Below, piece by piece: positions 6,262 through 64,000 of a DNA stretch of 64,000 bases. Positions within the stretch are counted from its first letter, which is position 1; the number at the start of each line of letters is the position of its first letter. Origin of the DNA: Mayamaea pseudoterrestris (Eukaryota); assembly GCA_027923505.1 (NCBI GenBank), contig BROI01000017.1, forward strand, positions 434,001 to 498,000, in the 5' to 3' direction. The position numbers were made by a program, and so were the translations under genes. Below the pieces are notes generated by a model. The model had not been told where the DNA came from. It saw nothing but the letters and a program-made list of their open reading frames with translations, and did no database searches.

Positions 6262-6685
6262 GCTAATGATGAATGAAGGCTTGTCTCAATTCAGAAACCG
6301 TGGGATCAGAGTGGAGACTGATGGTGGAGGAAAAGGAGATGGTATGATGGCATCTCGCACGAATTGGAGGGTGACGGATCATTGAAATGACCCAAGTCAC
6401 AGTCGAAAAACGTCAAAAGACACTTTCGAAGCAAAAGGGCTATTCCAACTTCAATGGAAACGCAAGTACGTTCGGATGAAACACGGACAAAATGACCATG
6501 ACAAGCTTACGTTTCTGTCGTCACAAACTCATAATTCAGGCTGCACTCGTCAATTGCCATATGACATGCCGTGTCTACACGCAAATCACACAAGAATGGT
6601 GCCAACATCATTATTCGTAATGTGCTACAAGATGGTAACCATAGGCTGCAATGTGACTGATGAGAACTTATAGGTGAAAAAGCAA

Positions 6686-7501
6686 CTAACCACCATCATT
6701 GTCGTCGCAAGACGATCTGAATACCGAAGCAAGCACGAACCCAACCATGTCCCATTCTGATTCATAGAATGGGAAGCACATTAAGAGAAAGAAAGCTGTT
6801 GATTCGTCCATTTTACCGCCGTACGCCTTTATTAAATCGGCTAACACTTCAGGATCCATTCCTGCCATATATCGATCGCAGTCCATCTCCTCCACGCTAT
6901 CTTCACCACCAGCTTGTGTACCACCTATCTTGGCTCGTTTCTGTTCATGTTCCAAATCTTTAGTGTCGTCATGCACATCTGCGTCACTTTCAATATCTGA
7001 CCATCCATTTTCTTCGTCCTCCATGTCAATTGCCGGTCTTTGTGATGGATGTCTACCTGCTGCCATGACTTGTACCCAGAGCAATTTTCGATTGCTTTCG
7101 CATAAATTTGTTGAAAGGTCAATGGAGTATGTCAGCAATGTGCCTAGTTCGTCTGTCGCTTCCCGCTCGAACAGAAAATTAAGCTTAGATGTCGACGGCG
7201 TTGATGCCGCTCCGCCTTTTCGAACATCTATTTCCACTTGCGCCTGTATTCTGACATAGTCGTGTCTTGTTCTGACGCAGTCATAGTCGATGACCTGTAT
7301 ACTTTTGCTTATCAGTTCAATATCCAAGTCTTGAAAGGCACGAAAGGGATCTTCGAATAACTTTTGTCGAACGCGTTCAGTTTGATAAAGTAGCTCCGCT
7401 TGCTCCTTTGCTGCTCGATAAACGTCTACTGCCAATTGACTTGACGAAGCACTTGCTAATGCAATTAGTTGCTCATTAACTTTGGACGACAGGGATGACA
7501 T
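6686..7501 (-). CDS. Hypothetical protein
   Basis: Single long ORF between two genes (ATG at 7501) with protein-like composition; no recognised domain. Confidence 0.6.
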   Translation of the reverse strand: MSSLSSKVNEQLIALASASSSQLAVDVYRAAKEQAELLYQTERVRQKLFEDPFRAFQDLDIELISKSIQVIDYDCVRTRHDYVRIQAQVEIDVRKGGAASTPSTSKLNFLFEREATDELGTLLTYSIDLSTNLCESNRKLLWVQVMAAGRHPSQRPAIDMEDEENGWSDIESDADVHDDTKDLEHEQKRAKIGGTQAGGEDSVEEMDCDRYMAGMDPEVLADLIKAYGGKMDESTAFFLLMCFPFYESEWDMVGFVLASVFRSSCDDNDGG

Positions 7502-31854: not shown

Positions 31855-34800
31855 GGCAATGTTTCATGATTTAGAAAGTGCAGTGGATTCATCTTTAGCC
31901 CTTATAGTCTCTGAGTTCTGCCAGTAGGACCACCAGAATTTTGTGGCCCCATGCATGTCCACAGTAGCTGGCTGCCATGACACACTCCAAACGCCAGACA
32001 CGTATTGCTAGCTGGCAGCTGACAGGCATTGTTTCATGATCTAGAAAGTGCAATACATTCATCAGTATCATGCAGTCTCCAAGTTCTGCCAGTAGGACTG
32101 CCTGAATTTTGTGGCTCCAGGCTTGTCCACAGTACCTGGCTGCCATGACCCACTCCAACGGCCAGCGAGGTATACAATGATAGCTGGCAGATTACAGGCA
32201 TTGTTTCATGATGTCAAAAGTTCAATGCATTCATCACTAGCCCATGTAGTCTCCAAGTTCTGCGACAGGGACTGCCAGAATTTCGTGTCCCCAGGCTTGT
32301 CCACAGTAGCTGGCTGCTATAACCCACTCCGACAGCCAGTTGACAGGCATTGTTTGATGGGGCAATGCAAACATCACTAGCCCAACTAGTCTCCAAGTTC
32401 TGCAACAGGGACTGCCAGAATTTCATGTCCCCAGGCTTGTCCACAATAGCTGAGTGCCATAACCCACTCCAACAGCCAGAAAGATATAAATTGATAGCTG
32501 GCAGTTGACAGGCATTGTTTCAGAATGTCAGATGTGCAATGCATTCTTCACGAGTCTTTGCAGTCTTCAAGTTCTGCCAGTAGGACTGCCTGCATTTTTT
32601 GTGGTCCCAGGCTCCTTCACAGTTGGTGGCTGCCATGACCCTCTCCAATGGCCAGAGAGGTATACCTTCATAGCTTGCAGTTGACAGGCATTGTTTCATG
32701 ATGTAGAAAGTGCAATGCATTTATCACTTGCCCATGCAGTCTCCAAGATCTGCCAGTAGGATTGCCAGAATTTCATGTCCCCATGCTTGTCCACAGTAGC
32801 TGGCTGCCATGACCCACTCCAACAGCCAGAAAGGTGTAAATTGATTGGCGGCAGTTGACAGGCATTGTTTCATGATGTCAAAAGTGCAATGCATTCATCA
32901 ATAGCCCATGTAGTCTCCAAGTTCTGTGACAGGGACTGCCAGAAATATGTGTCCCCAGGCTTGTCCACAGCAGCTGGCTGCCATAACCCACTCCAGCAGC
33001 CAGCAAGGTGAAAATTTATAGCTGGCAGTTGACAGGCATTGTTTGATGATGTCAGAAGTTCAATGCATTTATCATTAACCCATGTAGTCTCCGAGTCCTG
33101 TGACAGGGACTGCCAGAATTTCGTGTCCCTAGGCTTGTCCACAGTAGCTGGCTGCCATAAACCACTCCGACAGCCAGAGAGGTGTAAATTGATAGCTGGC
33201 AGTTGACAGGCATGGTTTGATGATGTCAAAAATGCAATGCATTCATCACTAGCCCATGTAGTCTTAAAGTTCTGCCACAGGGACTGCCAGAAATTCGTGT
33301 CCCCAGGCTTGTCCACAGCAGCTGGCTGCCATAACCCACTCCAACAGCCAGAAAGGTGTAAAATGATACTTGACAGTTGACAGGCATGGTTTGATGATGT
33401 CAAAAGTTCAATGCATTCATCACTAGCCCATGTAGTCTCCAAGTCCTGCAACATGGACTGCCAGAATTTCATGTCCCAGGCTTGTCCACAGTAGCTGGCT
33501 GCCATGACCCACTCCAACAGCCAGAGAGGTGTAAATTGATAGCTGGCAGTTGACAGGCATTGTTTGATGATGTCAAAAGTGCAATGCATTCATCACTAGC
33601 CCATGTAGTCTCCAAGTTCTGCGACAGGGACTGCCAGAATTTCATGTCCCCAGGCTTGTCCACAGTAGCTGGCTGGCATGACCCTCTCCAACCGCCAGAC
33701 ACATATACATTGCTAGCTGGCAGTTGACAGGCATTGTTTCATGATGTCAAAAGTGCATTGCACTCATCATTAGCCCATGTTGTCTTCAAGTTCTGTGACA
33801 GGGACTGCCAGAATTTCGTGTCCCCAGGCTTGTCCACAGTAGCTAGCTGCCATAACCCACTCCAACAGCCAGCAAGGTGTAAATTGATAGCTGGCAGTTG
33901 ACAGGCATTGTTTGATGATGTCAAAAGTGCAATGCATTCATCACTAGCCCATGTAGTCTCCAAGTTCTGTGACAGGGACTGCCAGAATTTCGTGTCCCCA
34001 GGCTTGTCCACAGTAGCTGGCTGCCATAACCCACTCCAGCAGCCAGCAAGGTGTAAATTGATAGCTGGCAGTTGACAGGTATTGTTTGATGATGTCAAAA
34101 ATACAATGCATTCATCAATAGCCCATGTAGTCTCAAAGTTCTGCCACAGGGACTGCCAGAAATTCGTGTCCCCAGGCTTGTCCACAGTAGCTGGCTGCCA
34201 TAACCCACTCCAGCAGCCAGAGAGGTGTAACTTTATAGCTGGCAGTTGACAGGCATTGTTTGATGATGTCAAAAGGTTAATGCATTCATCACTAGCCCAT
34301 GTAGTCTCCAAGTTCTAAGACAGGGACTGCCAGAATTTTGCATCCCCAGTCTTGTCCACAGTAGCTGGCTGGCATGACCCTCTCCAACCGCCAGACACAT
34401 ATACATTGCTAGCTGGCAGTTGACAGGCATTGTTTGATGATGTCAAAAGGTTAATGCAATCATCACTAGCCCATGTAGTCTCTAAGTTCTGCGACAGGGA
34501 ATGCCAGAATTTCGTGTCCCCAGGCTTGTCCACAGTAGCTGGCTGCCATAACCCACTCCAACAGCCAGAGAGGTGTAAATTGATAGGTGGCAGTTGACAG
34601 GCATTGTTTCAGGATGTCAAAAATGCAATGCATTCATTATAGCCCATGTAGTCTTCAAGTTCTGTGACAGGGACTGCCAGAATTTCGTGTCCCTGGGCTT
34701 GTCCATAGCAGCTGGCTGCCATAACCCACTCCAACAGCCAGAAAGGTGTAAAGTGATAGCTGGCAGTTGACAGGCATGGTTTGATGATGTCAACAGTTCA

Positions 34801-37800
34801 ATGCATCCATCACTAGCCCATGTAGTCTCCAAGTCCTGCGACAGGGACTGCCAGAATTTTGTGTCCCTGGCTTGTCCACAGTAGCTGGCTGCCATGACCC
34901 ACTCCAGCAGCCAGCAAGGTGTAAATTGATAACTGGCAGTTGACAGGCATTGTTTGATGATGTCAAAAGTGCAATGCATTCATCATTAGCCCATGTAGTC
35001 TCCAAGTTCTGTGACAGGGACTGCCAGAATTTCGTGTCCCCAGGCTTGTCCACAGTAGCTGGCTGCCATAACCCACTCCAGCAGCCAGCAATGTGTAAAT
35101 TGATAGCTGGCAGTTGACAGGCATTGTTTGATGATGTCAAAAGTTCAATGCATTCATACGAGGCTAACTAGTCTTCAAGTCCTGCGACAGGGACTGCCAG
35201 AATTTCGTGTCCCTAGGTTTGTCCACAGTAGCTGGCTGCCATAACCCACTCCAGCAGCCAGCAAGGTGTAAATTTATAGCTGGCAGTTGACAGGCATTGT
35301 TTGATGATGTCAAAAGGTTAATGCATTCATCACTAGCCCATGTAGTCTCCAAGTTCTGTGACAGGGACTGCCAGAATTTCTTGTCCCTGGCTTGTCCACA
35401 GCAGCTGGCTGCCATAAACCACTCCAACAGCCAGAGAGGTGTAAATTGATACTTGGCAGTTGACAGGCATGGTTTGATGATGTCAAAAATACAATGCATT
35501 CATCAATAGCCCATGTAGTCTTAAAGTTCTGCCACAGGGACTGCCAGAAATTCGTGTCCCCAGGCTTGTCCACAGTAGCTGGCTGCCATAACCCACTCCA
35601 ACAGCCAGAGAGGTGTAAATTGATAGCTGGCAGTTGACAGGCATGGTTTGATGATGTCAAAAATGCAATGCATTTATTATTAACCCATGTAGTCTTAAAG
35701 TTCCGTGACAGGAACTGCCAGAATTTCGTGTCCCCAGGCTTGTCCACAGCAGCTGGCTGCCATAACCCACTCCAGCAGCCAGCAATGTGTAAATTGATAG
35801 CTGGCAGTTGACATGCATTGTTTCATGATGTCAAAAATACAATGCATTCATCAATAGCCCATGTAGTCTCAAAGTTCTGCCACAGGGACTGCCAGAAATT
35901 CGTTTCCCAAGGTTTGTCCACAGTAGCTGGCTGCCATAACCCGCTCCAAGAGCCAGAGAGGTGTAAATTGATAGCTGGCAGTTGACAGGCATGGTTTGAT
36001 GATGTCAAAAATGCAATGCATTTATTATTAACCCATGTAGTCTTAAAGTTCCGTGACAGGAACTGCCAGAATTTTGTGTCCCTAGGCTTGTCCACAGTAG
36101 CTGGCTGCCATAACCCACTCCAGCAGCCAGTAAGATGTAAATTGATAGCTGGCAGTTGACAGGCATTGTTCCATGATGTCAAAAAAGCAATGCATTCATC
36201 ATTAGCCCATGTAATCTTAATGTTCAGTGACAGGAACTGCCAGAATTCTGTGTCCCTAGGCTTGTCCACAGTAGCTGGCTGCCATGACCCACTCCAGCAG
36301 CCAGCAAGGTGTAAATTGATAGCTGGCAGTTGACAGGCATTGTTTGATGATGTCAAAAGTGCAATGCATTCATCACTAGCCCATGTAGTCTCCAAGTTCT
36401 GCGACAGGGACTGCCAGAATTTCGTGTCCCCAGGCTTGTCCACAGTAGCTGGCTGCCATAACCCACTCCGACAGCCAGAGAGGTGTAAATTGATAGCCTG
36501 GCAGTTGACAGGCATTGTTTGATGATGTCAAAAGTTCAATGCATTCATCACTAGCCCATGTAGTCTCCAAGTTCTGCGACAGGGACTGCCAGAATTTCGT
36601 GTCCCTAGGCTTGTCCACAGTAGCTGGCTGCCATAACCCACTCCAACAGCCAGAGAGGTGTAAATTGATAGGGAGTTGACAGGGTCTTGAGCGTTTGATT
36701 TCAATGCATTCATCACTAGCCCATGTAGTCTCCAAGTTCTGCAACAGGGACTGCCAGAATTTCGTGTCCCCAGGCTTGTCCACAGTAGCTGGCTGCCATA
36801 ACCCACTCCAACAGCCAGAGAGGTGTAAATTGATAGCTGGCAGTTGACAGGCATTGTTTCATGATGTCAAAAGTGCAATGCATTCATCACTAGCCCATGT
36901 AGTCTCCAAGTTCTGTGACAGGGACTGCCAGAATTTCGTGTCCCCAGGCTTGTCCACAGTAGCTGGCTGCCATAACCCACTCCAACAGCCAGCAAGGTGT
37001 AAATTGATAGCTGGCAGTTGACAGGCATTGTTTTAGGATGTCAAAAGTGCAATGCATTCATTACTAGCCCATGTAGTCTCCATGTCCTGCGACAGGGACT
37101 GCCAGAATTTCGTGTCCCAGGCTTGTCCACAGTAGCTGGCTGCCATAACCCACTCCAGCAGCCAGAGAGGTAGAAATTGATTGCTGGCAGTTGACAGGCA
37201 TTGTTTCATGATGTCAAAAGTGCAATCCATTCAGCACTAGTCCATGTAGTCTCCAAGTTCAGCGACAGGGACTGCCTGAATTTCATGTCCCCAGGCTTGT
37301 CCACAGTAGCTGGCTGCCATAACCCACTCCAGCAGCCAGCGAGGTGTAAATTGATTGCTGGCAGTTGACAGGCATTGTTTCATGATGTCAAAAGTGCAAT
37401 GCATTCATCACTAGCCCATGTAGTCTCCAAGTTCAGTGACAGGGACTGCCAGAATTTCGTGTCCCCAGGCTTGTCCACAGTAGCTGGCTGCCATAACCCA
37501 CTCCAGCAGCCAGCAAGGTATAAATTGATAGCTGGCAGTCATTGTTCAGGTGTCAAAAGTGCAATGCATTCACACTAGCTGGTCTCAGTTGACAGGGACT
37601 GCCAGAATTTGTCCAGCAGCTGGCTGCCATGTCTCCAAAGCAATACGGCTGGCATTGATTGGCAGTTGACAGGCATTGTTTCAAGATGTCAAAAGTGCAA
37701 TGCATTCATACTAGCCCAACTAGTCTTCAAGTTCTGCGACAGGGACTGCCAGAATTTCGTGTCCTTCGGCTTGTCCACAGTAGCTGGCTGCCATAACCCA

Positions 37801-38677
37801 CTCCAGCAGCCAGAGAGGTGTTAATTGATAGCTGGCAGTTGACAGGCATTGTTTGATGATGTCAAAAGTGCAATGCATTCATCATTAGCCCATGTAGTCC
37901 CCAAGTTCTGCAACAGGGACTGCCAGAATTTCGTGTCCCCAGGATTGTCTACAGTAGCTGGCTGCCATAACCCACTCCAACAGCCAGCGAGGTGAAGTTT
38001 ATAGCTGGCAGTTGACAGGCATTGTTTCATGATGTCAAAATGGCAATGCATTCATCACTAGCCCAACTAGTCTCCAAGTTCTGTGACAGGAACTGCCAGA
38101 ATTTCGTGTCCCTAGGCTTGTCCACAGTAGCTGGCTGCCATAACCCACTCCAACAGCCAGAGAGGTGTTAATTGATAGCTGGCAGTTGACAGGCATTGTT
38201 TCAGGATGTCAAAAGTGCATTGCATTCATCACTAGCCCATGTAGTCTTCAAGTTCTGTGACAGGGACTGCCAGAATTTCGTGTCCCTAGGCTTGTCCACA
38301 GCAGCTGGCTGCCATAACCCACTCCAGCAGCCAGAAAGGTGTAAATTGATAGCTGGCAGTTGACAGGCATTGTTTGATGATGTCAAAAGTTCAATGCATT
38401 CATCACTAGCCCAACTAGTCTCCACGTTCTGTGACAGGGACTGCCAGAATTTCGTGTCCCAGGCTTGTCCACAGTAGCTGGCTGCCATACCCACTCCAGC
38501 ACCAGAATTTCGTTTCCCCAGGCTTGTCCACAGCAGCTGGCTGCCATAACCAACTCCAGCAGCCAGAAAGGTGTAAATTGATAGCTGGCAGTTGACAGGC
38601 AATGTTTCATGATGTCAAAAATGCAATGCAATCATCATTAGCCCATTTAGTCTCCAAGTTCTGCGACAGGAACTGCC
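31855..38677. repeat. Satellite array A: about 39 tandem copies of a 174-bp unit (some 173 bp)
   Basis: For example CACAGTAGCT recurs at 36781 and 36955 (174 bp apart). Left copies are diverged and the right end is abrupt. The unit contains GCTGGCTGC..GCAGCCAGC, TTGACA..TGTCAA and GGGAC..GTCCC inverted repeats. Confidence 0.95.
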
Positions 38678-39158
38678 TGATTTATGCCGTCTTGGATGGT
38701 TTGGAGACGCACAGTCAAGATTTAGAGCTTGTGATGCTGGCTGTTGCGTTGCTCATATACATGGGCGCTCAATTTTTCTACCCTGATGGCTTGTTATAAT
38801 GGGAATGCTGCACCTTTTTGTGCATTTTATTCTTTGCAAGCACTTGGACTGCACACACATACAGGTGGAGGTGCTCTTTTTGCTGGGAAACTTGAGTTGC
38901 AACGTGGCACTGGCTAACACCATGACTCAAGTGGGTGCCATTTCTGCCATTATTGAAAGTCTAAATATCCATTGGCAAGATCCCAAAGTGAGCGAAGGTG
39001 GAGCGTTGGCCTTGTACAAGCTATCCAAGTGGAGCACATTGCACAAGCACTTGATTCTGGAGCATGGAGGGTATGCGTTTGCCTTGTGTATCTTCAAGAC
39101 GCATCCCGATGGCCGCGTTGGATGCGCCGCCATGGTGGCACTGGATTTGTTAATTTAA
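38678..39158 (+). pseudogene. 5'-truncated, frameshifted armadillo-repeat gene fragment
   Basis: IYAVLDGLETHSQDLELVMLAVALL, then a frame change near 38799, then LFLLGNLS..VGAISAIIESLNIH..VSEGGALALYKL..LILEHGG. These are ARM-like repeats starting directly at the satellite junction. Confidence 0.6.
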
Positions 39159-49093: not shown

Positions 49094-49799
49094 ATGGAGA
49101 ACAAAAAGAGAGCCCGCGAAGCTGAACCAATTGTCGCAGTCGTTGAGAAACGAACGCGATCAGCCTTGGCAGCGGCGCAGCCGGAGGAACGTAACGACGC
49201 GCTGCAGCAGCAGCGGCAAATGGAACAGGAGCAAGGAAAGCGTGAGTAGTGTATAGCGATGGAAAATCGATTCATGTCGTCTCTTGCGCAAACATGTTTC
49301 ATGTGCTCATTCCATTTCTTTCGTCGCCCATTCTGCAGTCCACGGACTCTCCGACACGTACGTGGAACTCGCCAGCAACATTGTCTTGTATGAGCAAGAC
49401 CAGCTTGGCCCCTATGGCTACAACGCGGCGGAAAACTCGTGGCCCCTGCAGTGCGTTTCAACCCTGGAATACATTAAATCCAAGCTACGGCGAGGCAGCG
49501 TTATGGAACGCTGGTCGCCGCTGGAGATTGCCACCTTTGAGGCATCCATGGCTGTATACGGAAAGGTCTTTGATAAGATCCAAAAGGAAGTCAAGACGAA
49601 ATCGTGCAAGGAAATTGTAGACTTTTACTATGTTTGGAAAAAGACGAAACACTATGAGCGATGGAAATTGGAGTATGTTCCGCCGTATTTGGACGTTTCG
49701 GATAACGAAGAGGAGGTTGCGACTGAAGGAGACGGTCCAGACAAGGAGGATGGTAACGGCAAGACCAATGCCAGGCGTGGTGGAAAGGTGAACAAGTAA
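49094..49799 (+). CDS. SANT-domain (MIER/ELM2-SANT-like) nuclear protein, 2 exons (49094-49241, 49339-49799)
   Basis: WSPLEIATFEASMAVYGKVFDKIQKEVKTKSCKEIVDFYYVWKK; in-frame 97-bp GTGAGT..CAG intron. Confidence 0.85.
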
Positions 49800-50159
49800 G
49801 GCTTGCGATGTGAGATGGTGCGACGAGTGGTATGGGGATTTGCACTTTGCACGTCGAAGGGAGCGTATGTAACGATTCTCTCGAGTTTATTCGACGTGCT
49901 TTTAAAGGTGCATAGCAAATTGTAAATCTATATGGATTATTAGTCTTGTATTGCCTATGCAGAGTGAGTTGCTCTTGGCAACGTGCACAATTAGATTGTG
50001 CCACTTGTAATACCCCCAGCCTCGAAGAGGTCCCAATTAATGCTTCCTGGCTCCGTCGAGATCAATTACAGGATGACAGAAGGACTCATTGAAAAGACTT
50101 CGTCGCAATTCGAGTAGAATCAGTAATGTTGCGCGCATTCTTCATTCGTCATGCGAGGA

Positions 50160-50411
50160 CTACCGTTGATCAACATTATTTGCAGTTGTCGTCGGCACTC
50201 GACCTAGTTCGCTTTCTTCCTCCTCCTTCATTTTCCGTCGCATTATTCGTAACCGCTCCTTGTCTCGCTCCACGCCAGCCCGCATGACTGCCTTGTCTCG
50301 AACCTGCGCATAATTATTGTAGGCAACGCTTCCAACGAAGAGTGTGGACGTGACAATGAGCGTCAAGGCAGCGCCTCCTCGCGGCAAGATTGATATTGGT
50401 TTTCGTGACAT
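50160..50411 (-). CDS. PET117: Cytochrome c oxidase assembly factor PET117-like
   Basis: Short protein with a hydrophobic helix followed by YAQVRDKAVMRAGVERDKERL, the PET117 pattern. Confidence 0.72.
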   Translation of the reverse strand: MSRKPISILPRGGAALTLIVTSTLFVGSVAYNNYAQVRDKAVMRAGVERDKERLRIMRRKMKEEEESELGRVPTTTANNVDQR

Positions 50412-50624
50412 TGTAATTGTAGATATAAGCGTGTTAGTTTAATGAATCTCTAGATATCTTCTACATATATAAATTTGTGGGAGTCAATGCAAAGAAATCG
50501 CCATCGTGCTGCGGTGGTGTGTGGCACAAATAAATAAAAATCCGTCCTGCGACGCAATGCGGCGAGACTGTCGCACCGGTGTTTACGTGCATTAAGAAAC
50601 TACCGGTACGACGTAGGTAAATCT

Positions 50625-53600
50625 GCACATTCAACAAGTTGTTGAATGTGCTAGCAGTGCACCATGCTTTGGCTACAGGATCATCAGCCTTGCCTGCTAA
50701 GCCATCCAACCTGTTTCCTATGATGTTGGATGACATTTTGGTCCAATGCTGGGGTGACTATCACCCCAATATCCACCAGCCTGGCTGCCATGGTGAGACT
50801 CGGCAGATCCAATAACTTGTAGGATCTGCCAGTGGTGCACCTCAACTGGTACACAGACCACCAGAATGCCTGCAGACCCAAGAATATCAAAACCCAAATG
50901 CATATGATACAATTGGACCAATAGTTATGTCAATTGTGGTGTGGAACGCAGCATGGTGCCATTAAATTCCGCACTTCAACAAGTTGTTGAATGTGCTAGC
51001 AGTACATCATGCTTTGGCTACAGGATCATCAGCCTTGCCTGCTAAGCCATCCAACCTGTTTTTATGATGTTGGATGACATTTTGATCAAATGCTGGGGTG
51101 ACTATCACCCCAATATCCACCAGCCTGGCTGCCATGGTGAGACTCGGCAGATCCAATAACTTGTTGGATCTGCCAGTGGTGCACCTCAACTGGTACACAG
51201 ACCACCAGAATGGTCTGCAGACCCAAGGATATAAAAACCAAAATGCATATGATACAATTGGACCAATAGTCTTGCCAATTGTGGTGTGGAACGCAGCATG
51301 GTGCCACGAAACTCCGCACATTCAACAAGTTGTTGAATGTGCTAGCAGTGCACCATGCTTTGGCTACAGGATCATCAGCCTTGCCTGCTAAGCCATCCAA
51401 CCTGTTTCCTATGATGTTGGATGACTTTTTATCCAAGGCTGAGTGACTATCACCCCAATATCCACCAGCCTGGCTGCCATGGTGAGACTCGGCAGATCCA
51501 ATAACTTGTTGGATCTGCCAGTGGTGCACCTCAACTGGTACACAGACCTCCAGAATGGCCTGCAGACCCAAGAATATTAAAACCCAAATACATATGATAC
51601 AATTGGACCAATAGTCATGTCAATTGTGGTGTGGAACGCAGCATGGTGCCACGAAACTCCGCACATTCAACAAGTTGTTGAATGTGCTAGCAGTGCACCA
51701 TGCTTTGGCTACAGGATCATCAGCCTTGCCTGCTAAGCCATCCAACCTGTTTCCTATGATGTTGGATAACATTTTTATCCACTGCTGGGGTGACTATCAC
51801 CCCAATATCCACCAGCCTGGCTGCCATGGTGAGACTCGGCAGATCCAATAACTTGTTGGATCTGCCAGTGGTGCACCTCAACTGGTACACAGACCACCAG
51901 AATGGTCTGCAGACCCAAGGATATAAAAACCAAAATGCATATGATAAAATTGGACCAAAAGTCATGCCAATTGTGGTGTGGAACGCGGCATGGTGCCACA
52001 AAACTCGGCACATTCAACAAGTTGTTGAATGTGCTAGCAGTGCACCATGCTTCGGCTACAGGATCATCAGCCTTGCCTGCTAGGCCATCCAACCTGTTTC
52101 CTATGATGTTGGATGACTTTTTATCCAAGGCTGAGTGACTATCACCCCAATATCCACCAGCCTGGCTGCCATGGTGAGACTCGGCAGATCCAATAACTTG
52201 TTGGATCTGCCAGTGGTGCACCTCAACTGGTACACAGACCACCAGAATGGCCTGCAGACCCAAGAATATCAAAACCAAAATACATATGATACAATTGGAC
52301 CAATAATCATGTCAATTGTGGTGTGGAACGCAGCATTGTGCCACAAAACTCCGCACATTCAACAAGTTGTTGAATGTGCTAGCAGTGCACCATGCTTTGG
52401 CTACAGGATCATCAGCCTTGCCTGCTAAGCCATCCAACCTGTTTCCTATGATGTTGGATGACATTTTGATCCAAGGCTGGGGTGACTATCACCCCAATAT
52501 CCACCAGCCTGGCTGCCATGGTGAGACTCGGCAGATCCAATAACTTGTTGGATCTGCCAGTGGTGCACCTCAACTGGTACACAGACCACCAGAATGGCCT
52601 GCAGACCCAAGAATATCAAAACCAAAATACATATGATACAATTGGACCAATAGTCATGCCAATTGTGGTGTGGAACGCAGCATTGTGCCACCACACTCCG
52701 CACATTCAACAAGTTGTTGAATGTGCTAGCAGTGCACCATGCTTTGGCTACAGGATCATCAGCCTTGCCTGCTAAGCCATCCAACCTGTTTCCTATGATG
52801 TTAGATGACATTTTTATCCAAGGCTGGGTTGATTATCACCCCAATATCCACCAGCCTGGCTGCCATGGTGAGACTCGGCAGATCCAATAACTTGTTGGAT
52901 CTGCCAGTGGTGCACCTCAGCTGGTACACAGACCACCAGAATGGCCTGCAGACCCAAGAATATAAAACCCCAAATGCATATGATACAATTGGACCAATAG
53001 TCACGTCAATTGTGGTGTGGAACGCAGCATTGTGCTGCGAAACTCCGCACATTCAACAAGTTGTTGAATGTGCTAGCAGTGCACCATGCTTTGGCTACAG
53101 GATCATCAGCCTTGCCTGCTAAGCCATCCAACCTGTTTCCTATGATGTTGGATGACATTTTGATCCAATGCTGGGGTGACTATCACCCCAATATCCACCA
53201 GCCTGGCTGCCATGGTGAGACTTGGCAGATCCAATAACTTGTTGGATCTGCCAGTGGTGCACCTCAGCTGGTACACAGACCTCCAGAATGGCCTGCAGAC
53301 CCAAGAATATCAAAACCAAAATACATATGATACAATTGGACCAATAGTCATGCCAATTGTGGTGTGGAACGCAGCATTGTGCCACGAAACTCCGCACATT
53401 CAACAAGTTGTTGAATGTGCTAGCAGTGCACCATGCTTTGGCTACAGGATCATCAGCCTTGCCTGCTAAGCCATCCAACCTGTTTCCTATGATGTTGGAT
53501 GACATTTTTATCCAAGGCTGGGTGACTATCACCCCAATATCCACCAGCCTGGCTGCCATGGTGAGACTCGGCAGATCCAATAACTTGTTGGATCTGCCAG

Positions 53601-56600
53601 TGGTGCACCTCAGCTGGTACACAGACCTCCAGAATGGCCTGCAGACCCAAGAATATTAAAACCAAAATACATATGATACAATTGGACCAATAGTCATGTC
53701 AATTGTGGTGTGGAACGCAGCATTGTGCCACGAAACTCCGCACATTCAACAAGTTGTTGAATGTGCTAGCAGTGCACCATGCTTTGGCTACAGGATCATC
53801 AGCCTTGCCTGCTAAGCCATCCAACCTGTTTCCTATGATGTTGGATGACATTTTGATCAAATGCTGGGGTGACTATCACCCCAATATCCACCAGCCTGGC
53901 TGCCATGGTGAGACTCGGCAGATCCAATAACTTGTTGGATCTGCCAGTGGTGCCCCTCAACTGGTACACAGACCACCAGAATGGCCTGCAGACCCAAGGA
54001 TATGAAAACCAAAATGTATATGATACAATTGGACCAATAGTCATGTCAATTGTGGTGTGGAACGCAGCATGGTGCTGCGAAACTCTGCACATTCAACAAG
54101 TTGTTGAATGTGCTAGCAGTGCACCATGCTTTGGCTACAGGATCATCAGCCTTGCCTGCTAAGCCATCCAACCTGTTTCCTATGATGTTGGATGACATTT
54201 TGATCCAAGGCTGGGGTGACTATCACCCCAATATCCACCAGCCTGGCTGCCATGGTGAGACTCGGCAGATCCAATAACTTGTTGGATCTGCCAGTGGTGC
54301 ACCTCAACTGGTACACAGACCTCCAGAATGGCCTGCAGACCCAAGAATATCAAAACCAAAATACATATGATACAATTGGACCAATAGTCATGTCAATTGT
54401 GGTGTGGAACGCAGCATTGTGCCACGAAACTCCGCACATTCAACAAGTTGTTGAATGTGCTAGCAGTGCACCATGCTTTGGCTACAGGATCATCAGCCTT
54501 GCCTGCTAAGCCATCCAACCTGTTTCCTATGATGTTGGATGACATTTTTATCCAAGGCTGGGTTGATTATCACCCCAATATCCACCAGCCTGGCTGCCAT
54601 GGTGAGACTCGGCAGATCCAATAACTTGTTGGATCTGCCAGTGGTGCACCTCACGGGCGACGCCAGTGTGCAGACCAAGAATATTGCACATCCATCCAAT
54701 GACTGGGCTGGTGCAGAATGGCCTGCAGCCCAAGAATATACCACATATGATACAATTGGACCAATAGTCATTCAATTGTGTGTTGAATGTGCCAGCACTC
54801 AAGTTATGCAGTGCACCATGCTTTGGCTACAGGATCATCAGCCTTGCCTGCTAGGCCATCCATCCTGTTTCCTCTGATGTTGGATGACATTTTTTCCAAG
54901 GCTGGGTGACTATCACCCCAATATCCACCAGCCTGGCTGCCATGGTGAGACTCGGCAGATCCAATAACTTGTTGGATCTGCCAGTGGTGCACCTCAACTG
55001 GTACACAGACCTCCAGAATGGCCTACAGACCCAGGAAATCAAAACCCAAATGCATATGATACAATTGGACCAATAGTCATGCCAATTGTGGTGTGGAACG
55101 CAGCATTGTGCCGCGAAACTCCGCACATTCAACAAGTTGTTGAATGTGCTAGCAGTGCACCATGTTTTGGCTACAGGATCATCAGCCTTGCCTGCTAAGC
55201 CATCCAACCTGTTTCCTATGATGTTGGATGACTTTTTTCCAAGGCTGGGTGACTATCACCCCAATATCCACCAGCCTGGCTGCCATGGTGAGACTCGGCA
55301 GATCCAATAACTTGTTGGATCTGCCAGTGGTGCACCTCAACTGGTACACAGACCACCAGAATGGCCTGCAGACCCAAGAATATAAAAACCAAAATGCATA
55401 TGATACAATTGGACCAATAGTCATGTCAATTGTGGTGTGGAACGCAGCATGGTGCCATGAAACTCCGCACATTCAACAAGTTGTTGAATGTGCTAGCAGT
55501 GCACCATGCTTTGGCTACAGGATCATCAGCCTTGCCTGCTAAGCCATCCAACCTGTTTCCTATGATGTTGGATGACATTTTGATCAAATGCTGGGGTGAC
55601 TATCACCCCAATATCCACCAGCCTGGCTGCCATGGTGAGACTCGGCAGATCCAATAACTTGTTGGATCTGCCAGTGGTGCACCTCAACTGGTACACAGAC
55701 CACCAGAATGGCCTGCAGACCCAAGAATATCAAAACCAAAATACATATGATACAATTGGACCAATAGTCATGTCAATTGTGGTGTGGAACGCAGCATTGT
55801 GCCACGAAACTCCGCACATTCAACAAGTTGTTGAATGTGCTAGCAGTGCACCATGCTTTGGCTACAGGATCATCAGCCTTGCCTGCTAAGCCATCCAACC
55901 TGTTTCCTATGATGTTGGATGACATTTTGATCCAAGGCTGGGGTGACTATCACCCCAATATCCACCAGCCTGGCTGCCATGGTGAGACTCGGCAGATCCA
56001 ATAACTTGTTGGATCTGCCAGTGGTGCACCTCAACTGGTACACAGACCTCCAGAATGGCCTGCAGACCCAAGAATATCAAAACCAAAATACATATGATAC
56101 AATTGGACCAATAGTCATGTCAATTGTGGTGTGGAACGCAGCATGGTGCCACGAAACTCCGCACATTCAACAAGTTGTTGAATGTGCTAGCAGTGCACCA
56201 TGCTTTGGCTACAGGATCATCAGCCTTGCCTGCTAAGCCATCCAACCTGTTTCCTATGATGTTCAATGACATTTAGATCCAAGGCTGGGGTGACTATCAC
56301 CCCAATATCCACCAGCCTGGCTGCCATGGTGAGACTCGGCAGATCCAATAACTTGTTGGATCTGCCAGTGGTGCACCTCAACTGGTACACAGACCACCAG
56401 AATGGCCTGCAGACCCAAGAATATCAAAACCAAAATACATATGATACAATTGGACCAATAGTCATGTCAATTGTGGTGTGGAACGCAGCATTGTGCCACG
56501 AAACTCCGCACATTCAACAAGTTGTTGAATGTGCTAGCAGTGCACCATGCTTTGGCTACAGGATCATCAGCCTTGCCTGCTAAGCCATCCAACCTGTTTC

Positions 56601-58075
56601 CTATGATGTTGGATAACTTTTTTCCAAGGCTGGGTGACTATCACCCCAATATCCACCAGCCTGGCTGCCATGGTGAGACTCGGCAGATCCAATAACTTGT
56701 TGGATCTGCCAGTGGTGCACCTCAACTGGTACACAGACCTCCAGAATGGCCTGCAGACCCAAGAATATCAAAACCAAAATACATATGATACAATTGGACC
56801 AATAGTCATGTCAATTGTGGTGTGGAACGCAGCATGGTGCCACGAAACTCCGCACATTCAACAAGTTGTTGAATGTGCTAGCAGTGCACCATGCTTTGGC
56901 TACAGGATCATCAGCCTTGCCTGCTAAGCCATCCAACCTGTTTCCTATGATGTTGGATGACATTTTGATCAAATGCTGGGGTGACTATCACCCCAATATC
57001 CACCAGCCTGGCTGCCATGGTGAGACTCGGCAGATCCAATAACTTGTTGGATCTGCCAGTGGTGCACCTCAGCTGGTACACAGACTCCAGAATGGCCTGC
57101 AGACCCAAAAATATTAAAACCTTAATATATATGATACAATTGGACCAATAGTCATGTCAATTGTGGTGTGGAACACTGCATTGTGCCACGAAACTCTGCA
57201 CATTCAACAAGTTGTTGAATGTGCTAGCAGTGCACCATGCTTTGGCTACAGGATCATCAGCCTTGCCTGCTGAGCCATCCACCTGTTTCCTATGATGTTG
57301 GATGACATTTTTTTAAGGCTGCGTGACTATCACCCCAATATCCACCAGCCTGGCTGCCATGGTGAGACTCGGCAGATCCAATAACTTGTTGGATCTGCCA
57401 GTGGTGCACCTCAACTGGTACACAGACAACCAGAATGGCCTGCAGACCAAAGAATATCAAAACCAAAATACATATGATACAATTGGACCAATAGTCATGC
57501 CAATTGTGGTGTGGAACGCAGCATGGTGCCATGAAACTCCGCACATTCAACAAGTTGTTGAATGTGCTAGCAGTGCACCATGCTTTGGCTACAGGATCAT
57601 CAGCCTTGCCTGTTAAGCCATCCAACCTTTTTCCTATGATGTTGGATGACTTTTTTTCCAAGGCTGGGTGACTATCACCCCAATATCCACCAGCCTGGCT
57701 GCCATGGTGAGACTCGGCAGATCCAATAACTTGTTGGATCTGCCAGTGGTGCACCTCAGCTGGTACACAGACCACCAGAATGGCCTGCAGACCCAAGAAT
57801 ATAAAACCCCAAATGCATATGATACAATTGGACCAATAGTCATGTCAATTGTGGTGTGGAACGCAGCATTGTGCCGCGAAACTCCGCGCATTCAACAAGT
57901 TGTTGAATGTGCCAGCAGTGCACCATGCTGTGGCTACAGGATCATCAGCCTTGCCTGCTAAGCCATCCAACCTGTTTCCTATGATGTTGTATGACATTTT
58001 TATCCAAGGCTGGGGTGCCTATCACCCCAATATCCACCAGCCTGGCTGCCATTGTGAGACTCGGCAGATCCAATA
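50625..58075. repeat. Satellite array B: about 21.5 tandem copies of a 345-347-bp unit (dimer of 178+169 bp)
   Basis: Identical ORF starts recur at 52135/52482, 53869/54216 and 55596/55943 (347 bp apart); multiple palindromes per unit. Confidence 0.96.
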
Positions 58076-60820
58076 TTGCTACTTCTCCAGGCTTAGTATA
58101 GTCCAATACCATGCCGAGGTAGTCGTGCACTTTTCCGCGTGACTTATTCATTGGAGTCTCCTTGCCAAACTCCTCATCCATCTGCGCGATGAACTCATCC
58201 ACTACGCTCACGTCGACGTGCGAAATCTTAAATCGTCCACGTGCCATCCGGTGATTTGCTTCCCATTGACAATCTTGTTGCACACACACGATCGTACGGT
58301 TCTTCTCGAAGCCCCACTCAAGCAATTTTGCGGACAACTTCTCCCAGAATAGTCGCGCTGCTCGAAGCGTACCATAAAGCGCCATGAGTAATTCAACATA
58401 CATGACTTTTCGCCATTCTCCATTGTGACGCAAGGCTCGTACATCTCGCGATCAATTTCCAACAGTAGCTCCACCATCTTCCCAGTGAAACGAACGTGCA
58501 CCAACTCATCCATTTCCGCTTGCATGAAAGCACCCGGTACATCAACCACAGCAACCTCGCGCCCTTCCATAGCGTCAATGATAGCTGTCAGAAAGATGGC
58601 CTCTGTCGCTATCGTTGGAGATTGCTGCGTCTTCCTTTGCAGTGTATACTGTTGTGCGTCCATCCGCGCATCCGCGTCCCTTCACAGTCCCGCATCTCTT
58701 GCGCTTGAGAAACATCAAATACGCCAGAGCGTCCTTGCGCTGCTGCCGGAGTCAGAGTGCATTGGGGGACTGCCTTCATGACGTGCCTGTCGTGTAGCTG
58801 CTGCATTTCCTTGCGCACTGCCTCCACTCCAGCATCGCCAAAAGCCTTTAAACCTTGTCGCATATTCATCTGTGCCGTGACGAGTGGCTCCGACACTTCC
58901 TCTGCAGCGTCGAGCGTGAACAAATGAGCGAACGAGCGAGGTTTGTGGCGCGCACGCAGGCCATACCGACCAGTGGCGTGGGCCATAGCGCGCATCGCAA
59001 TCCTCTTCGTCTGCAGCAGCTGGCACTCCTTCAATTTCGCCTTCATCGGGCACTCCTTCAATTTCGCCATCATCCACGGCTGGCGCGTCGTCAAGTTCGC
59101 CGTCAATGGCCTCACCACCTCGTCGTTCGGCACTCCTTCGATTGCGCCGTCAGCACCATCGTCGTCGTCGTCGTCGTCATCGGTCGCATTCACTCCTTCG
59201 CTTCCGCCGCAGAGTCGTCGTCACCGCGAGAAGCGTCGTCATCATAATCAGAGTCATCATCATCCTCGGCGTCATCTTCGTGCCACATGACTGGCTCAGC
59301 AGCCTCCGCAACACGGTGGCGGTCCATGAACACGATGCCCGGATTGGCCTTCTGTTGACGAAGCGAGACGATGCACGCGGGCCAATGACATCATCAGGCA
59401 TGGGCAAAGGCGTAGCGTGCCCACGATTCAGAACTTTGCCCGAAGACAAACTGAGGAAATAAAACCCACCCTGCACATTACCAGTCGGGCGCAGAGCCAG
59501 CGCACCGATCGTGCGCGCCTGCATGTCATTGCTGTGCGACTCATGCGTTTGCACATACTGACCAAATTCATACTTGCAATGCCGATTAAAGTCAACTGTC
59601 TGACCAGTCACAATAGTGCGTGGACTGAGATCCTTCGAAATGCCACGCTCGTTCGGAAACGCATTCAACCAAAACACGGCAGACTTCGTCATTTCGATAA
59701 CCAAGCGTGCCTTCACCGGCTTAAATGGCAACGTGTTGTATGTCGGGCGCACCCGTTCTTTCACGACACGGATAAAACGTTCAATTTCGCCAACGTGTTC
59801 ATCCTCAGATGTCGCATTGAGCGCCACTCCGAGATCAGCCAACGCGCCAAGCATTGAGCGAACTCCCATTCCTTCAGAGCCGCGACGACACGGAACCCAC
59901 CGCGTGCGTAAATCTTCAACACAGACTCGATTGCCTTCAACATAACCGGAAGCGTACGGTTTTGAATCACCTCAACCGTAGCAAAACGAATGCTGCGGGA
60001 GAACGTCACCAACATAGGGACTTTGTTGATATACATGATGTCAGCACAAAGAGTAACGTCTCGATAGCGACTCATGATAGCCGGTGGAAGCTGCTCAACA
60101 ATCGCAGGCTCACCAGATGCGACGCGCGACGCGTCGTCTTTCCTTTTAACGAGCCAACATCTGGTCCAAAGATGTGCTCAGCAGCCAGGATGTGGCCCGT
60201 CACAGGACAGTTCGGCAACTGATTGCTAGTAACGATGCGCAGGTAATCCTTGAGGCTTGGCCGTCCAATTTGATTTGCAGTTCCCTAGCTCTAACAGCGC
60301 GTAAATAGTCATCATTGGTGTAGTTAGTACGGTTATCGTCTACCGTAGTCAACATCGCTCCATCCTTGACATCGCTGCGCTTGCCCTTCGAAAAGCTCGC
60401 AAACATACAGCCCAGAGTCAGTCTCGACAAACTCGCGCTTACCATCCGGCTTCTCCACAACGAACATTGATCGATCCACGCCGTGCAGAGATACCCACGG
60501 TAAACTTTTGCGGACTTGGCGCCAAAACTCAAAATGTCGCCAGTCCCTGCGGATACCACCACACCGGACCATAGCCCTCCAGGTCGCCCATCATGTTCGT
60601 CCTTACTGTACCAGCGTTGCACTTGATCACCATCCACGTTGGCACCGGGCGAATGTTCGTCAGCATCTTGGCGTTGCAGAACAGATCCACTGTCGACTGA
60701 TTGTCCAAGAGCACAGCCTTCTTCGAGATGTTCACCTTCGGCGGCTGCGCGAACATGTATCCGACCTCATCGTCGTCATCGCTTTCTTCCTCGCTACCCA
60801 GCGTGAAGTGCTGCGCCCCA

Positions 60821-61999
60821 CTAGCCTCTGCAGCCGGCGCACTCTCCGTAGACTCCGTTCTCGTGAGGACAGTCTCGCTGCACATGACCAACCTGTTGAC
60901 AGGTCCAGCATCTGGGAGGGTCACGCGCTGTACCAGTCGTGTGAAACGCCACGCCCTCGTTCGTTGGCAACGTGGCTTCTCCATCCGCATGCTCACGACG
61001 CTGCATGATGTTGTATGCATCGTGGATCGTCAACGGGAAGTTGTCGTGCCCGTCGAGGTAGCAGTTGCGCAAGTGCTTGCAATACCCAGCGTATTCGCCC
61101 GTTGCGCCACGCACGAAAAGCATCGCAAGCTCGAGCTCTTCGGCGGCCTTGATATCCTCCTTGTTCGCCTTGTTACGATTGTCATCCTGTGCAGGGTGGA
61201 ACGCCACAAGCTCGTTGTGCATCGTGACGCCAACCGCCTTCTCCACGTCTGCCAGCGTGACCGTGCTTTCGTAATATTTCTGCAGACTTTCGCGCGCCCG
61301 AGTACGTCCGAACAACTCAGCTTGAATGTCCACGACTTGATCCACAAGTTTGCAGCGCCCTTCGTACGTATGCGAGATCTCCTTGATAATCGCCAGCAAC
61401 TTAATTCCGTCCGTGTCCTCCTCGGCGTCTCGGAACTTGGCGTGCGACTTGACACGATCCTTCATACGCTCCGTGCATTGTCCATGCAACACGGCGTAGA
61501 GACCAGCGAGGAAGTCGGAGTATACACGCACGCGCTCGACATGCTCTTTCTTGTCGGCCTTGTATTCCTCGAGCATTATGGACCAGTCCGAGTCCGTCGT
61601 GTCGGCATCCTTCGTTGGACGTGCAGGCTCGTCAGGAATCTCCAGTTCCACGTTGCGCATGCCCTTGAGCAGCTCCTTGGTATATTTCTTGTAGGAGCGC
61701 CCGACGAAAGTGATGATCTCGTTCGTCGTACGGATGAATCCATCGGGATCGCGCGAACCGTTATAGTCGTAGATGAATCCAGCGAGCGTCGGCTCGCTTC
61801 CTTGGAAATTTCCACTCGGCGCACGACTCGGTCCGTTGAGTCTGTTACCATTGCCTTGATTCCCGGAACGATTCCCAGCACGATTCCCACGACGATAATG
61901 ACGGTTGCGTCGGTTTCCTTCGCTTGCTGGCGGAGCGGGAGGTGCACCTCCACCGCTCGACGCCGCTCCTGTCGTCGGAGTATTGCTCGTCGAAGACAT
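60821..61999 (-). CDS. Copia gag ORF with a CCHC zinc knuckle
   Basis: 392-aa ORF with LHGQCTERMKDRV..DGIKLL, LRNCYLDGHDNFPLTI and a CX2CX4HX4C knuckle. Confidence 0.85.
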   Translation of the reverse strand: MSSTSNTPTTGAASSGGGAPPAPPASEGNRRNRHYRRGNRAGNRSGNQGNGNRLNGPSRAPSGNFQGSEPTLAGFIYDYNGSRDPDGFIRTTNEIITFVGRSYKKYTKELLKGMRNVELEIPDEPARPTKDADTTDSDWSIMLEEYKADKKEHVERVRVYSDFLAGLYAVLHGQCTERMKDRVKSHAKFRDAEEDTDGIKLLAIIKEISHTYEGRCKLVDQVVDIQAELFGRTRARESLQKYYESTVTLADVEKAVGVTMHNELVAFHPAQDDNRNKANKEDIKAAEELELAMLFVRGATGEYAGYCKHLRNCYLDGHDNFPLTIHDAYNIMQRREHADGEATLPTNEGVAFHTTGTARDPPRCWTCQQVGHVQRDCPHENGVYGECAGCRG

Positions 62000-62379
62000 G
62001 TCTTTTCACTCGCTTCTTGGAGAAAATGTTGGATCTAGAATATATCTTGCGCGCCCTTGAAGCGACACTAATGATTAAGCAGAACAGAGTCAATAAAACC
62101 ACTTTACTTATTTTCTCCAAGAAGTGATCGTCCTCGATCCACTCCTTCGGTTGCCGCTTACCGCGCTTACTTAAATGTGACCGTCTTCGTGACGTCACCG
62201 CTGCCGCTTCGGTTTGGGTTCTCATCCATGCTCAACACGTCGGATCGCTAGCGACGACAGACGATAGGCTATTTGCGACGCATTGGCCAGCTCGAAAAAA
62301 GCGGAAGAAGCATCCTCGCCATTGATCAAAATGTTTGGAAAGATGAGTGGTTCTATGTCGGAGTTGTGGGCCATAACGG

Positions 62380-62508: not shown

Positions 62509-62685
62509 TATTACAACGAACTGTGGTGCGACCTACCGGTACGTTGACGGTAGCCTATCCTCTGTCCAAACTCACAGTCAAACCAAGCTGAGCAATCCTC
62601 AATTTACCTACTATAGGAAGCATCAGCATTGTTAGTGGTTACTTCAAAGTGAACCTTTCACTGGTAGGCAGGATGTGATTCAGCA

Positions 62686-64000
62686 CTGGTGACAAGTTGT
62701 CACCAAAGACATTGCCATCCCCTGAGACACCAGCCAAGCTTACCATCTTGTAGCGCAGCCTGAAAAAGGATGTTGGCACCATTCTGGTGTAATTTGGCAC
62801 CTACAGGGCCTGCTGTAGGGGCGTTTGAATGTCATGGCATCTGCGGGCTGAGACTGGTGACAAGTTGTCACCAAATATATTGCCATCCCCTGAGACACCA
62901 GCCAAGCTTACCATCTTGTAGCGCAGCCTATATAATGATGTTGGCACCATTCTGGTGTGATTTGGGCACCTACCGGGCTTGCTGTAGGTGTGTCTGAAAG
63001 TCATGGCATCTGCAGGCAGAGACTGGTGACAAGTTGTAGCAAATACCATGCAGTCCCCTGAGACACCATCTGAAGGCTGGGACTGGTGACAAGTTGTCAG
63101 CAAATACCATGCAGTCCCCTGAGACAAAGCCAGGCATACCATCTTGTAGCGCATCCCATTTAATGATGTGGCACCATTCTGGTGTCATTTGGGTGTATCC
63201 ATGGCCTGCTGTAGGGGCATTTGAATGTCAAGGCATCTGCAGGCTGAGACTGGTGACAAGTTGTCACCAAATACATTGCCGTCCCCTGAGACAAATGCCA
63301 GGCATACCATCTTGTTGTGTAGCCTCAATTATGATGTTGGCACCATTCTGGTGTCATTTGGGTGTATACATGGCCTGCTGTAGGAGCATTTGAATGTCAA
63401 GGCATCTGCGGGCTGAGACTGGTGACAAGTTGTCACCAAATACATTGCAATCCCATGAGACACCCGCCAAGCTTACCATCTTGTAGCGCAGCTAGAAACT
63501 GATGTTGGCACCATTCTGGGGTAAGTTTGGCACCTACAGGGCCTGCTGTAGGGGCGTTTGAATGTCATGGCATCTGCAGGCTGAGACTGGTGACAAGTTG
63601 TCACCAAATACATTGCCATCCCCTGAGACACCAGCCAAGCTTACCATCTTGTAGCGCAGCCTATAAAATGATGTTGGCACCATTCTGGTGTAATTTGGGC
63701 ACCTACAGGGCCTGCTGTAGGGGCATTTGAATGTCATGGCATCTGCGGGCTGAGACTGGTGACAAGTTGTCACCAAATACATTGCCATCCCCTGAGACAC
63801 CAGCCAAGCTTACCATGATGTAGCACAGCCGGAAAAATGATGTTGGCACCATTGTGGTGTAATTTGGGCACCTACAGGGCCTGCTGTAGGGGCGTTTGAA
63901 TGTCATGGCATCTGTCGGCTTAGACTGGTGACAAGTTGTCACCAAATACATTGCCATCCCCTGAGACACCAGCCAAGCTTACCATGTTGTAGCGCAGCCT
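62686..64000. repeat. Satellite array C: at least 7 copies of a 167-169-bp unit plus one 60-bp partial copy; runs off the window
   Basis: CTGGTGACAAG recurs at 62686, 62854, 63023, 63083, 63250, 63419, 63587, 63756 and 63925. Confidence 0.93.

Follow-up and report, generated by a model that had tools for sequence, protein, structure and literature searches.

The window analysed here, a stretch of 64,000 nucleotides of Mayamaea pseudoterrestris contig BROI01000017.1 (assembly GCA_027923505.1, positions 434,001–498,000), contains a tandem array of a 347-bp satellite whose repeat unit comprises two diverged halves, A and B, each headed by a short module built around a palindrome. The two palindromes are homologous and differ from one another by non-random, paired substitutions that keep their arms complementary. 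This array is one of three satellite arrays found within 32 kb, with periods of 174, 347 and 169 bp (the last named here family C), and ordinary genes lie between satellite arrays at 38.7–50.6 kb. The window belongs to the nuclear genome of a pennate diatom. It is not prokaryotic: its long open reading frames (ORFs) are densely packed and encode typical eukaryotic proteins, including a dynamin, KTI12, a MYND finger protein, a protein kinase, an S28 peptidase and a DUF1995 protein. The named relatives of the dynamin are all diatoms (Fragilaria, Seminavis and Synedra; 46–48% identity), and the ORF of a retrotransposon matches, with 97% identity across 59% of its length, a M. pseudoterrestris protein, which points to the raphid pennate diatoms.

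Tandem Repeats Finder (TRF) reports the 347-bp satellite as a single array (50625–58075, period 347, 21.5 copies, 93% matches), and alignment to its own consensus provides the ends listed in Table 1. It is a long head-to-tail, non-coding array with a dimeric higher-order unit, the period of which is not a multiple of 3. A coding role was rejected for the 347-bp and 174-bp arrays, since no Pfam domain was found above threshold in the array ORFs that were scanned (up to 168 and 239 amino acids, respectively). A possible sub-period of about 81 bp was likewise discarded, the corresponding gapless self-match (z of about 3 among 346 offsets) not being significant. The satellite is also high-copy beyond this locus. 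It occurs in contigs of three public sequencing runs bearing three different organism labels, where one unit matches 346, 73 and 35 contigs and the unique flank of the array a single contig of one run, contig depth being distinct from copy number; a fourth public run yielded no matching contigs.

Table 1. Position and character of the repeats, palindromes and hairpins in the window.
Feature	Positions	Strand	Description	Basis
347-bp satellite array	50619..58075	.	21.5 units, each of an A half (178 bp) and a B half (169 bp)	TRF; monomer alignment and consensus; ends by alignment to consensus
Module A (44 nt)	52348..52391	+	15 exact occurrences	
Module B (44 nt)	52526..52569	+	18 exact occurrences; 34 of 44 positions match module A	
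Right flank of module A	52392..52437	+	Homologous to 52570–52615 after module B; 28/44 aligned columns identical	
Palindrome A	52353..52379	.	13-bp perfect arms, central G; 19 copies	Perfect-palindrome scan
Palindrome B	52530..52558	.	14-bp arms, central C, one T:G at the third pair from the centre	Pair counts
Hairpin CATCCAAC / GTTGGATG	52431..52460	+	8-bp stem, 14-nt loop; -6.0 kcal/mol, z -3.7	
Hairpin GGGGTGA / TCACCCC	52479..52495	+	7-bp stem, 3-nt loop; -8.0 kcal/mol, z -5.1	
Weak hairpin ACAATTG / CAATTGT	52638..52666	+	-5.7 kcal/mol, z -1.75; 7/200 shuffles as good	
Degenerate Ty1/copia retrotransposon	58076..62005	-	Cut inside reverse transcriptase exactly at the satellite junction	
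169-bp satellite (family C)	62685..64000	.	Runs off the window	TRF; start mapped

The two modules were delineated in a first-pass annotation of this DNA, and both strings occur in the window as quoted there; the palindrome centres that it gave (52366, 52544 and 52713, with spacings of 178 and 169) follow from the module starts. Each half displays the same layout, in which a GA(A/G)ACT motif is followed by a 27- or 29-bp palindrome and then by GTGCACC. As single-stranded DNA, palindrome A folds at -12.4 kcal/mol (z -4.8) and palindrome B at -13.0 kcal/mol (z -5.5), with 0 of 200 shuffles as good in either case, and on either strand the palindromes reach -12.4 to -13.1 kcal/mol and beat all 200 shuffles. 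The 347-bp unit as a whole is hairpin-rich (z -5.7; 0/100 shuffles as good). The unit and both palindromes thus carry the excess of dyad symmetry and predicted non-B DNA that is characteristic of dyad-rich centromeric satellites. Three smaller hairpins had also been proposed, of which the first two in Table 1 beat all 200 shuffles and the third, ACAATTG/CAATTGT, is weak. Array variants in the smaller hairpins are one-sided, and every variant in the CATCCAAC/GTTGGATG hairpin breaks pairs.

To compare the halves, the consensus was split at the modules (A, 178 nucleotides; B, 169 nucleotides) and alignments were set against shuffled controls. Similarity is strongest over the first 44 nucleotides (77% identity; z 7.4 to 12.9; 0/1,000 shuffles as good) and extends beyond the module into positions 45–90, where 4 of 2,000 shuffles align as well as the real sequences (P=0.002). 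When all sequence after the right arm is taken together, 11 of 1,000 shuffles are as good. No significant similarity was detected at positions 91–130 (137/2,000), in the tail (476/2,000), where the last ~85 nucleotides of each half are unalignable, or in the 30 nucleotides upstream of the modules (774/2,000). Homology of the halves, which the first-pass annotation had put forward as an ancient dimer, is therefore established outside the palindrome and over approximately the first 90 nucleotides of each half. Given the near-equal spacings of 178 and 169, the 347-bp unit appears to be a diverged head-to-tail dimer of a ~174-bp monomer rather than the product of a small internal duplication. Within this monomer the module is the slower-changing part, the second parts of the halves having diverged beyond alignment.

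Modules A and B differ at positions 5, 9, 12, 16, 19, 26, 29, 33, 36 and 37. Two pairs are fully swapped, as previously noted: pair 9/29 reads C:G in A but G:C in B, and pair 12/26 reads T:A in A but C:G in B. The T:G wobble (position 16) and the inversion of the central base (position 19, G in A and C in B) were confirmed as well. Two further relationships had escaped the earlier description. Positions 5 and 33, an unpaired C/T in A, form a fourteenth G:C pair in B, and single units show the intermediates G/T, C/C and T/T; positions 36/37, which read CA in A and TG in B, represent the alternative decay products of a single CpG, which occurs in its CG form in public contigs. These changes are not random with respect to pairing. 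When A was substituted at random in 1,000,000 simulations, all 14 pairs were kept in a fraction of 4.8e-4 with 10 changes over 44 nucleotides, and of 1.0e-4 with 8 changes over the 29-nucleotide span. Among nine distinct module variants, 96% of cells pair, as opposed to 27–38.5% when the partners are slid.

The expectation that covariation would become significant in a larger alignment was not borne out. Among 22 A and 22 B copies, only two pairs change on both sides, both along the A/B split, a number that 319 of 500 shuffles also attain; these copies fall into two nearly invariant types, so that the alignment has no power. Significant covariation on several independent lineages, as expected of a structured RNA, was accordingly not found. 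Within either type, array variants are all one-sided and consist of A-to-G changes giving G:T, an AT-to-AA change, a 1-nucleotide arm deletion and one rearranged unit. Two adjacent units at 54429–55117 are rearranged: foreign sequence stands in place of the variable part of one B half, and the following palindrome A lacks its left arm and carries a 13-nucleotide insert after its right arm. An ‘inside-out' palindrome suspected there, at 54776, was not confirmed by an inverted-repeat search.

The palindromes are also the least variable part of the array. In 20 of the 22 units, the two rearranged ones having been dropped, variant cells amount to 3/1,104 in palindromes and 161/5,684 elsewhere, a roughly 10-fold lower level, and variable sites to 3/56 and 63/291, respectively (P=0.0027). 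In the public runs, where the read evidence consists of assembled contigs, which lose rare variants, palindrome A and pairs 9/29 and 12/26 of palindrome B are free of variants with a share of 5% or more. At the wobble position, a C that restores the pair accounts for 22%, 37% and 42% of depth in the three runs, a polymorphism suggesting that the T is a later, one-sided change. In one run, 6% of depth carries G instead of the central C of palindrome B. Several pairs of neighbouring variant sites alternate among CpG, TpG and CpA, and the arm variants of at least 5% share are all one-sided.

Public contigs further reveal the modules outside the 347-bp unit. Contigs matching module A only (50625–50663) or module B only (50786–50849) continue into other sequence on both sides, and some of their flanks resemble the flanks of the opposite module type. 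This occurrence in other flank contexts indicates more monomer types than the two seen here. A metagenome scan with a module pattern in which the ten variable positions were left free returned three single, non-tandem matches with unrelated flanks, about the number expected by chance, and scans of viral contigs with the same pattern and with the family C module returned no match each.

Three array ends coincide with dyads. The 347-bp array starts 6 nucleotides before palindrome A and ends 2 nucleotides before the centre of palindrome B, and the family C array starts 2 nucleotides before its own palindrome; the ends of the 174-bp array are not at dyads. By a rough estimate of our own, three ends out of three would fall at dyads by chance with a probability of about 0.006. 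The right end of the 347-bp array is a true rearrangement joint to the interior of a copia reverse transcriptase. The copia polyprotein, encoded on the minus strand from base 58077, is frameshifted, with a zf-CCHC domain above and an RVT_2 domain below threshold; most of its 200 relatives carry RVT_2, it is up to 97% identical to a M. pseudoterrestris protein, and its alignment with P0121, a relative of 1,477 residues, breaks off at residue 1,177, at base 58077. Breakage at the tip of a palindrome is an expected product of hairpin or cruciform processing.

Near the left end, a PET117 homologue (50160–50411, minus strand) lies ~200 nucleotides from the beginning of the array, and an ORF just left of the array (49284–49799, plus strand) has a Myb-like/DUF7952 match below threshold. 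In run X2, a 635-nucleotide contig follows the left flank (50102–50602) with six differences and then continues for 134 nucleotides that differ from the window; at this locus, the organism of that run may have a different junction or may lack the array.

The neighbouring satellites offer an internal comparison. The 174-bp satellite (31855–38683) forms a 6.8-kb array of ~38 units, with a two-unit period of 347 bp near its end (37660–38506). It has no dyad excess (z -0.14), which indicates that dyads are not required for building arrays at this locus, and the same value lends no support to an interrupted palindrome that had been suspected in this family. A palindrome-like site at ~31781 (GGAGAGAAGTTGTCTCC), which resembles that of family C with one more swapped pair, was set aside because, by our estimate, about one such match is expected by chance per 64 kb. 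Family C has a two-unit period of 337 bp, one-sided in-array variants and a modest dyad excess (z -2.2). Its palindrome, TGGTGACAA-G-TTGTCACCA, is perfect over 19 nucleotides, present in seven perfect copies and preceded by GAGAC. Family C units start with GAGACT, as in B, and the palindrome has the core ACAAGTTGT, as in A, a coincidence of motif and core with a probability near 1e-5 by rough estimate. If the two palindromes are homologous, five further outer pairs differ between them and all are compensated. The earlier suggestion that family C provides a related monomer does not extend beyond the module, outside which it is unalignable to the halves (354/1,000 shuffles as good for A–C and 23/1,000, uncorrected, for B–C). 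The 174-bp and 169-bp consensus sequences show no significant similarity to the A and B halves (|z| at most 1.3), and cross-family BLAST found only 11–13-mers. A solo, decayed family C monomer occurs at ~6500–6700 on the minus strand (82% identical over 67 nucleotides; E 4e-13), its palindrome reduced to the outer arms.

All three satellites are strongly depleted in CpG. Observed/expected ratios are 0.19, 0.15 and 0.20 (0.15 for the 174-bp family; ranges 31969–38568, 50620–58075 and 62682–64000), with TpG+CpA at 1.7–1.8, against CpG ratios of 1.07–1.09 in the genes between the arrays and 1.27 in the copia remnant. Such a pattern probably reflects cytosine methylation targeted to the arrays over a long time.

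Taken together, the data incline us, tentatively, to view the array as a high-copy dimeric satellite whose palindromes are cis-acting DNA structures, with arms kept matched by arm-to-arm copying, and that serve as break and join points. The palindromes would be dyads able to extrude in vivo as hairpins or cruciforms, and not RNA or coding elements. In a first step, a change in one arm would be copied to the other by replication template switching or by hairpin-templated repair; in a second, the corrected unit would be spread by homogenisation of the array. The sequence of the palindrome itself might be held by constraint, with a putative benefit to the cell, or by preferential homogenisation. 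The dyads could in addition be preferred points of breakage and joining, which would explain both the position of the array ends and the lowest variability there.

Several observations weigh against this proposal. Among public-contig sites with variants of at least 5%, the palindromes (5/56) are not distinguishable from the rest of the unit (32/291; P=0.81). Pair-breaking changes do occur: a one-sided T>G variant at 50825 reaches 5%, 13% and 2% of depth in the three runs, and the AT-to-AA change and the arm deletion described above each break a pair in one unit of the array. The 174-bp array is equally poor in CpG without any dyad excess, and the coincidence of array ends with dyads was noticed post hoc. 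The whole of the covariation derives from the single A/B split, with no double change within either type, so that selection and arm-to-arm template switching are not separable on this evidence.

The strongest competitor, although distinctly less probable in our estimation, is that the palindromes are neutral by-products without any role. Template switching or hairpin repair would then match the arms, and low variability would reflect the recent amplification of one unit. The one-sided nature of all within-type variants, the unremarkable variability of the palindromes among the public-contig sites just cited and the success of the 174-bp family without dyads are as this explanation predicts, and the mechanism it invokes is documented (PMC8794818). 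However, arm-to-arm copying by itself preserves symmetry and not sequence, and the two versions of the module have nevertheless stayed 77% identical although the second parts of their halves can no longer be aligned. No palindrome pair is changed on both sides in the array, while 22% of the other sites vary. The module is also found next to different flanks and, in part, within family C.

Three further readings, which invoke a binding protein, a transposon origin or an RNA role, are each less likely than the proposal of cis-acting DNA structures. According to the first, which we regard as improbable, a dimeric DNA-binding protein with sequence specificity recognises the module, which would have a heterochromatin or centromere role comparable to that of the CENP-B box. 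There is one conserved module per ~174 bp, invariant in most copies; its flanks ACTC and GTGCACC are invariant, its inner core is conserved, with A and B agreeing at 10 of 13 arm positions, and the core ACAAGTTGT and the 5′ GAGACT recur in family C. However, a dimer that reads bases would not need complementarity at non-contact positions, the flanks are asymmetric, and no candidate protein was found, the Myb-like ORF beside the array being below threshold.

Rather more doubtful is the idea that the palindromes are abutted or subterminal ends of transposable elements, either foldback or similar to miniature inverted-repeat transposable elements (MITEs), or a hairpin recognised by a rolling-circle nickase; the hairpin would then mark both the start and the end point of the tandem or rolling-circle amplification from which the arrays arose. 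This would suit array ends located at palindromes, a polar motif adjoining the hairpin, the solo decayed monomer of family C and modules found in several flank contexts. However, the array ends have no target-site duplications and the 64-kb window contains no dispersed solo 347-bp unit, features expected of tandem repeats derived from MITEs, foldback elements or Helitrons; unit ends taken from centre to centre match at 10/13 positions only, while the palindromes are perfect; and no transposase or Rep gene is tied to the satellite in a partial ORF survey of the window. A function of hairpin-folded satellite transcripts, such as small-RNA precursors or ribozyme-like motifs, seems very improbable: the plus strand does tolerate the T:G wobble and two G:T states, but equally many transition variants give a wobble on the minus strand only, stems of 13–14 bp are short for dicing, and no Rfam family reaches threshold over 50000–53500 (best 26 bits against a cutoff of 70).

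A more specific and decidedly speculative extension, to which we give little credence, would make the module (GAGACT, the dyad with core ACAAGTTGT, and GTGCACC) the functional element of regional centromeres built from satellites in this lineage of raphid diatoms, with one short array cluster per ~1-Mb chromosome and a cruciform under selection so that its arms co-vary. If the arrays do mark centromeres, they would bear on the building of artificial chromosomes in diatoms and would represent a centromere type quite unlike that of Phaeodactylum. The centromeres of Phaeodactylum tricornutum are reportedly short, AT-rich (low in GC) and without satellites. The arrays described here differ from these in being satellites of 47–50% GC. 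The account of the P. tricornutum centromeres (bioRxiv 10.1101/096016) is the only description of diatom centromeres that our search recovered. A literature search found no paper on diatom satellite DNA, and the main text of the genome paper of the nearest named species (PMC9724779) makes no mention of tandem, satellite or centromere; diatom satellite DNA is thus essentially undescribed.

Each of the ingredients has precedents in other systems, namely higher-order dimers (PMC4410388), satellites with conserved boxes (PMC8097292) and repair by template switching. In alpha-satellite dimers, two diverged monomers are homogenised as one repeat unit. The 347-bp unit shares this architecture, but its halves are far more diverged, being alignable over about the first 90 nucleotides. 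The CENP-B box and the 19-bp box of Meloidogyne are short conserved motifs present once per monomer and common to different satellite families. The module described here is likewise a short motif per monomer common to families of one genome; it differs in that the conserved feature includes base-pair complementarity, and its binding by a protein is putative. Template-switch mutations were reportedly described by Loytynoja and Goldman in 2017 (PMC5453318) for human mutation clusters. In RNA genes, template switching can create and repair stems in one event, according to Monttinen and Loytynoja (2022; PMC8794818). As in that work, the palindromes show multi-base compensated changes and the extension of a stem that are explicable by one replication event; unlike RNA genes or human mutation clusters, the stem lies here in non-coding satellite DNA.

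The closest parallel is with the dyad-rich centromeric satellites of Kasinathan and Henikoff (2018; PMC5889037), whose dyads are under 10 bp and linked to mapped centromeres. The satellites compared here have in common with them a tandem organization, nucleosome-scale monomers and short dyads predicted to form non-B DNA. They are distinguished by arms of 13–14 bp, by one dominant dyad per monomer and by arrays of only ~7 kb that lie among normal genes. With homologous palindromes that have defined paired differences, a polymorphic wobble and array ends at dyads, the locus is a compact and tractable case that could discriminate between a DNA structure, a binding protein and a replication error process as the keeper of satellite dyads. 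What sets it apart from the systems above is its lineage and the clean pairing of two homologous dyads within one unit of an otherwise ordinary dyad-bearing higher-order satellite.

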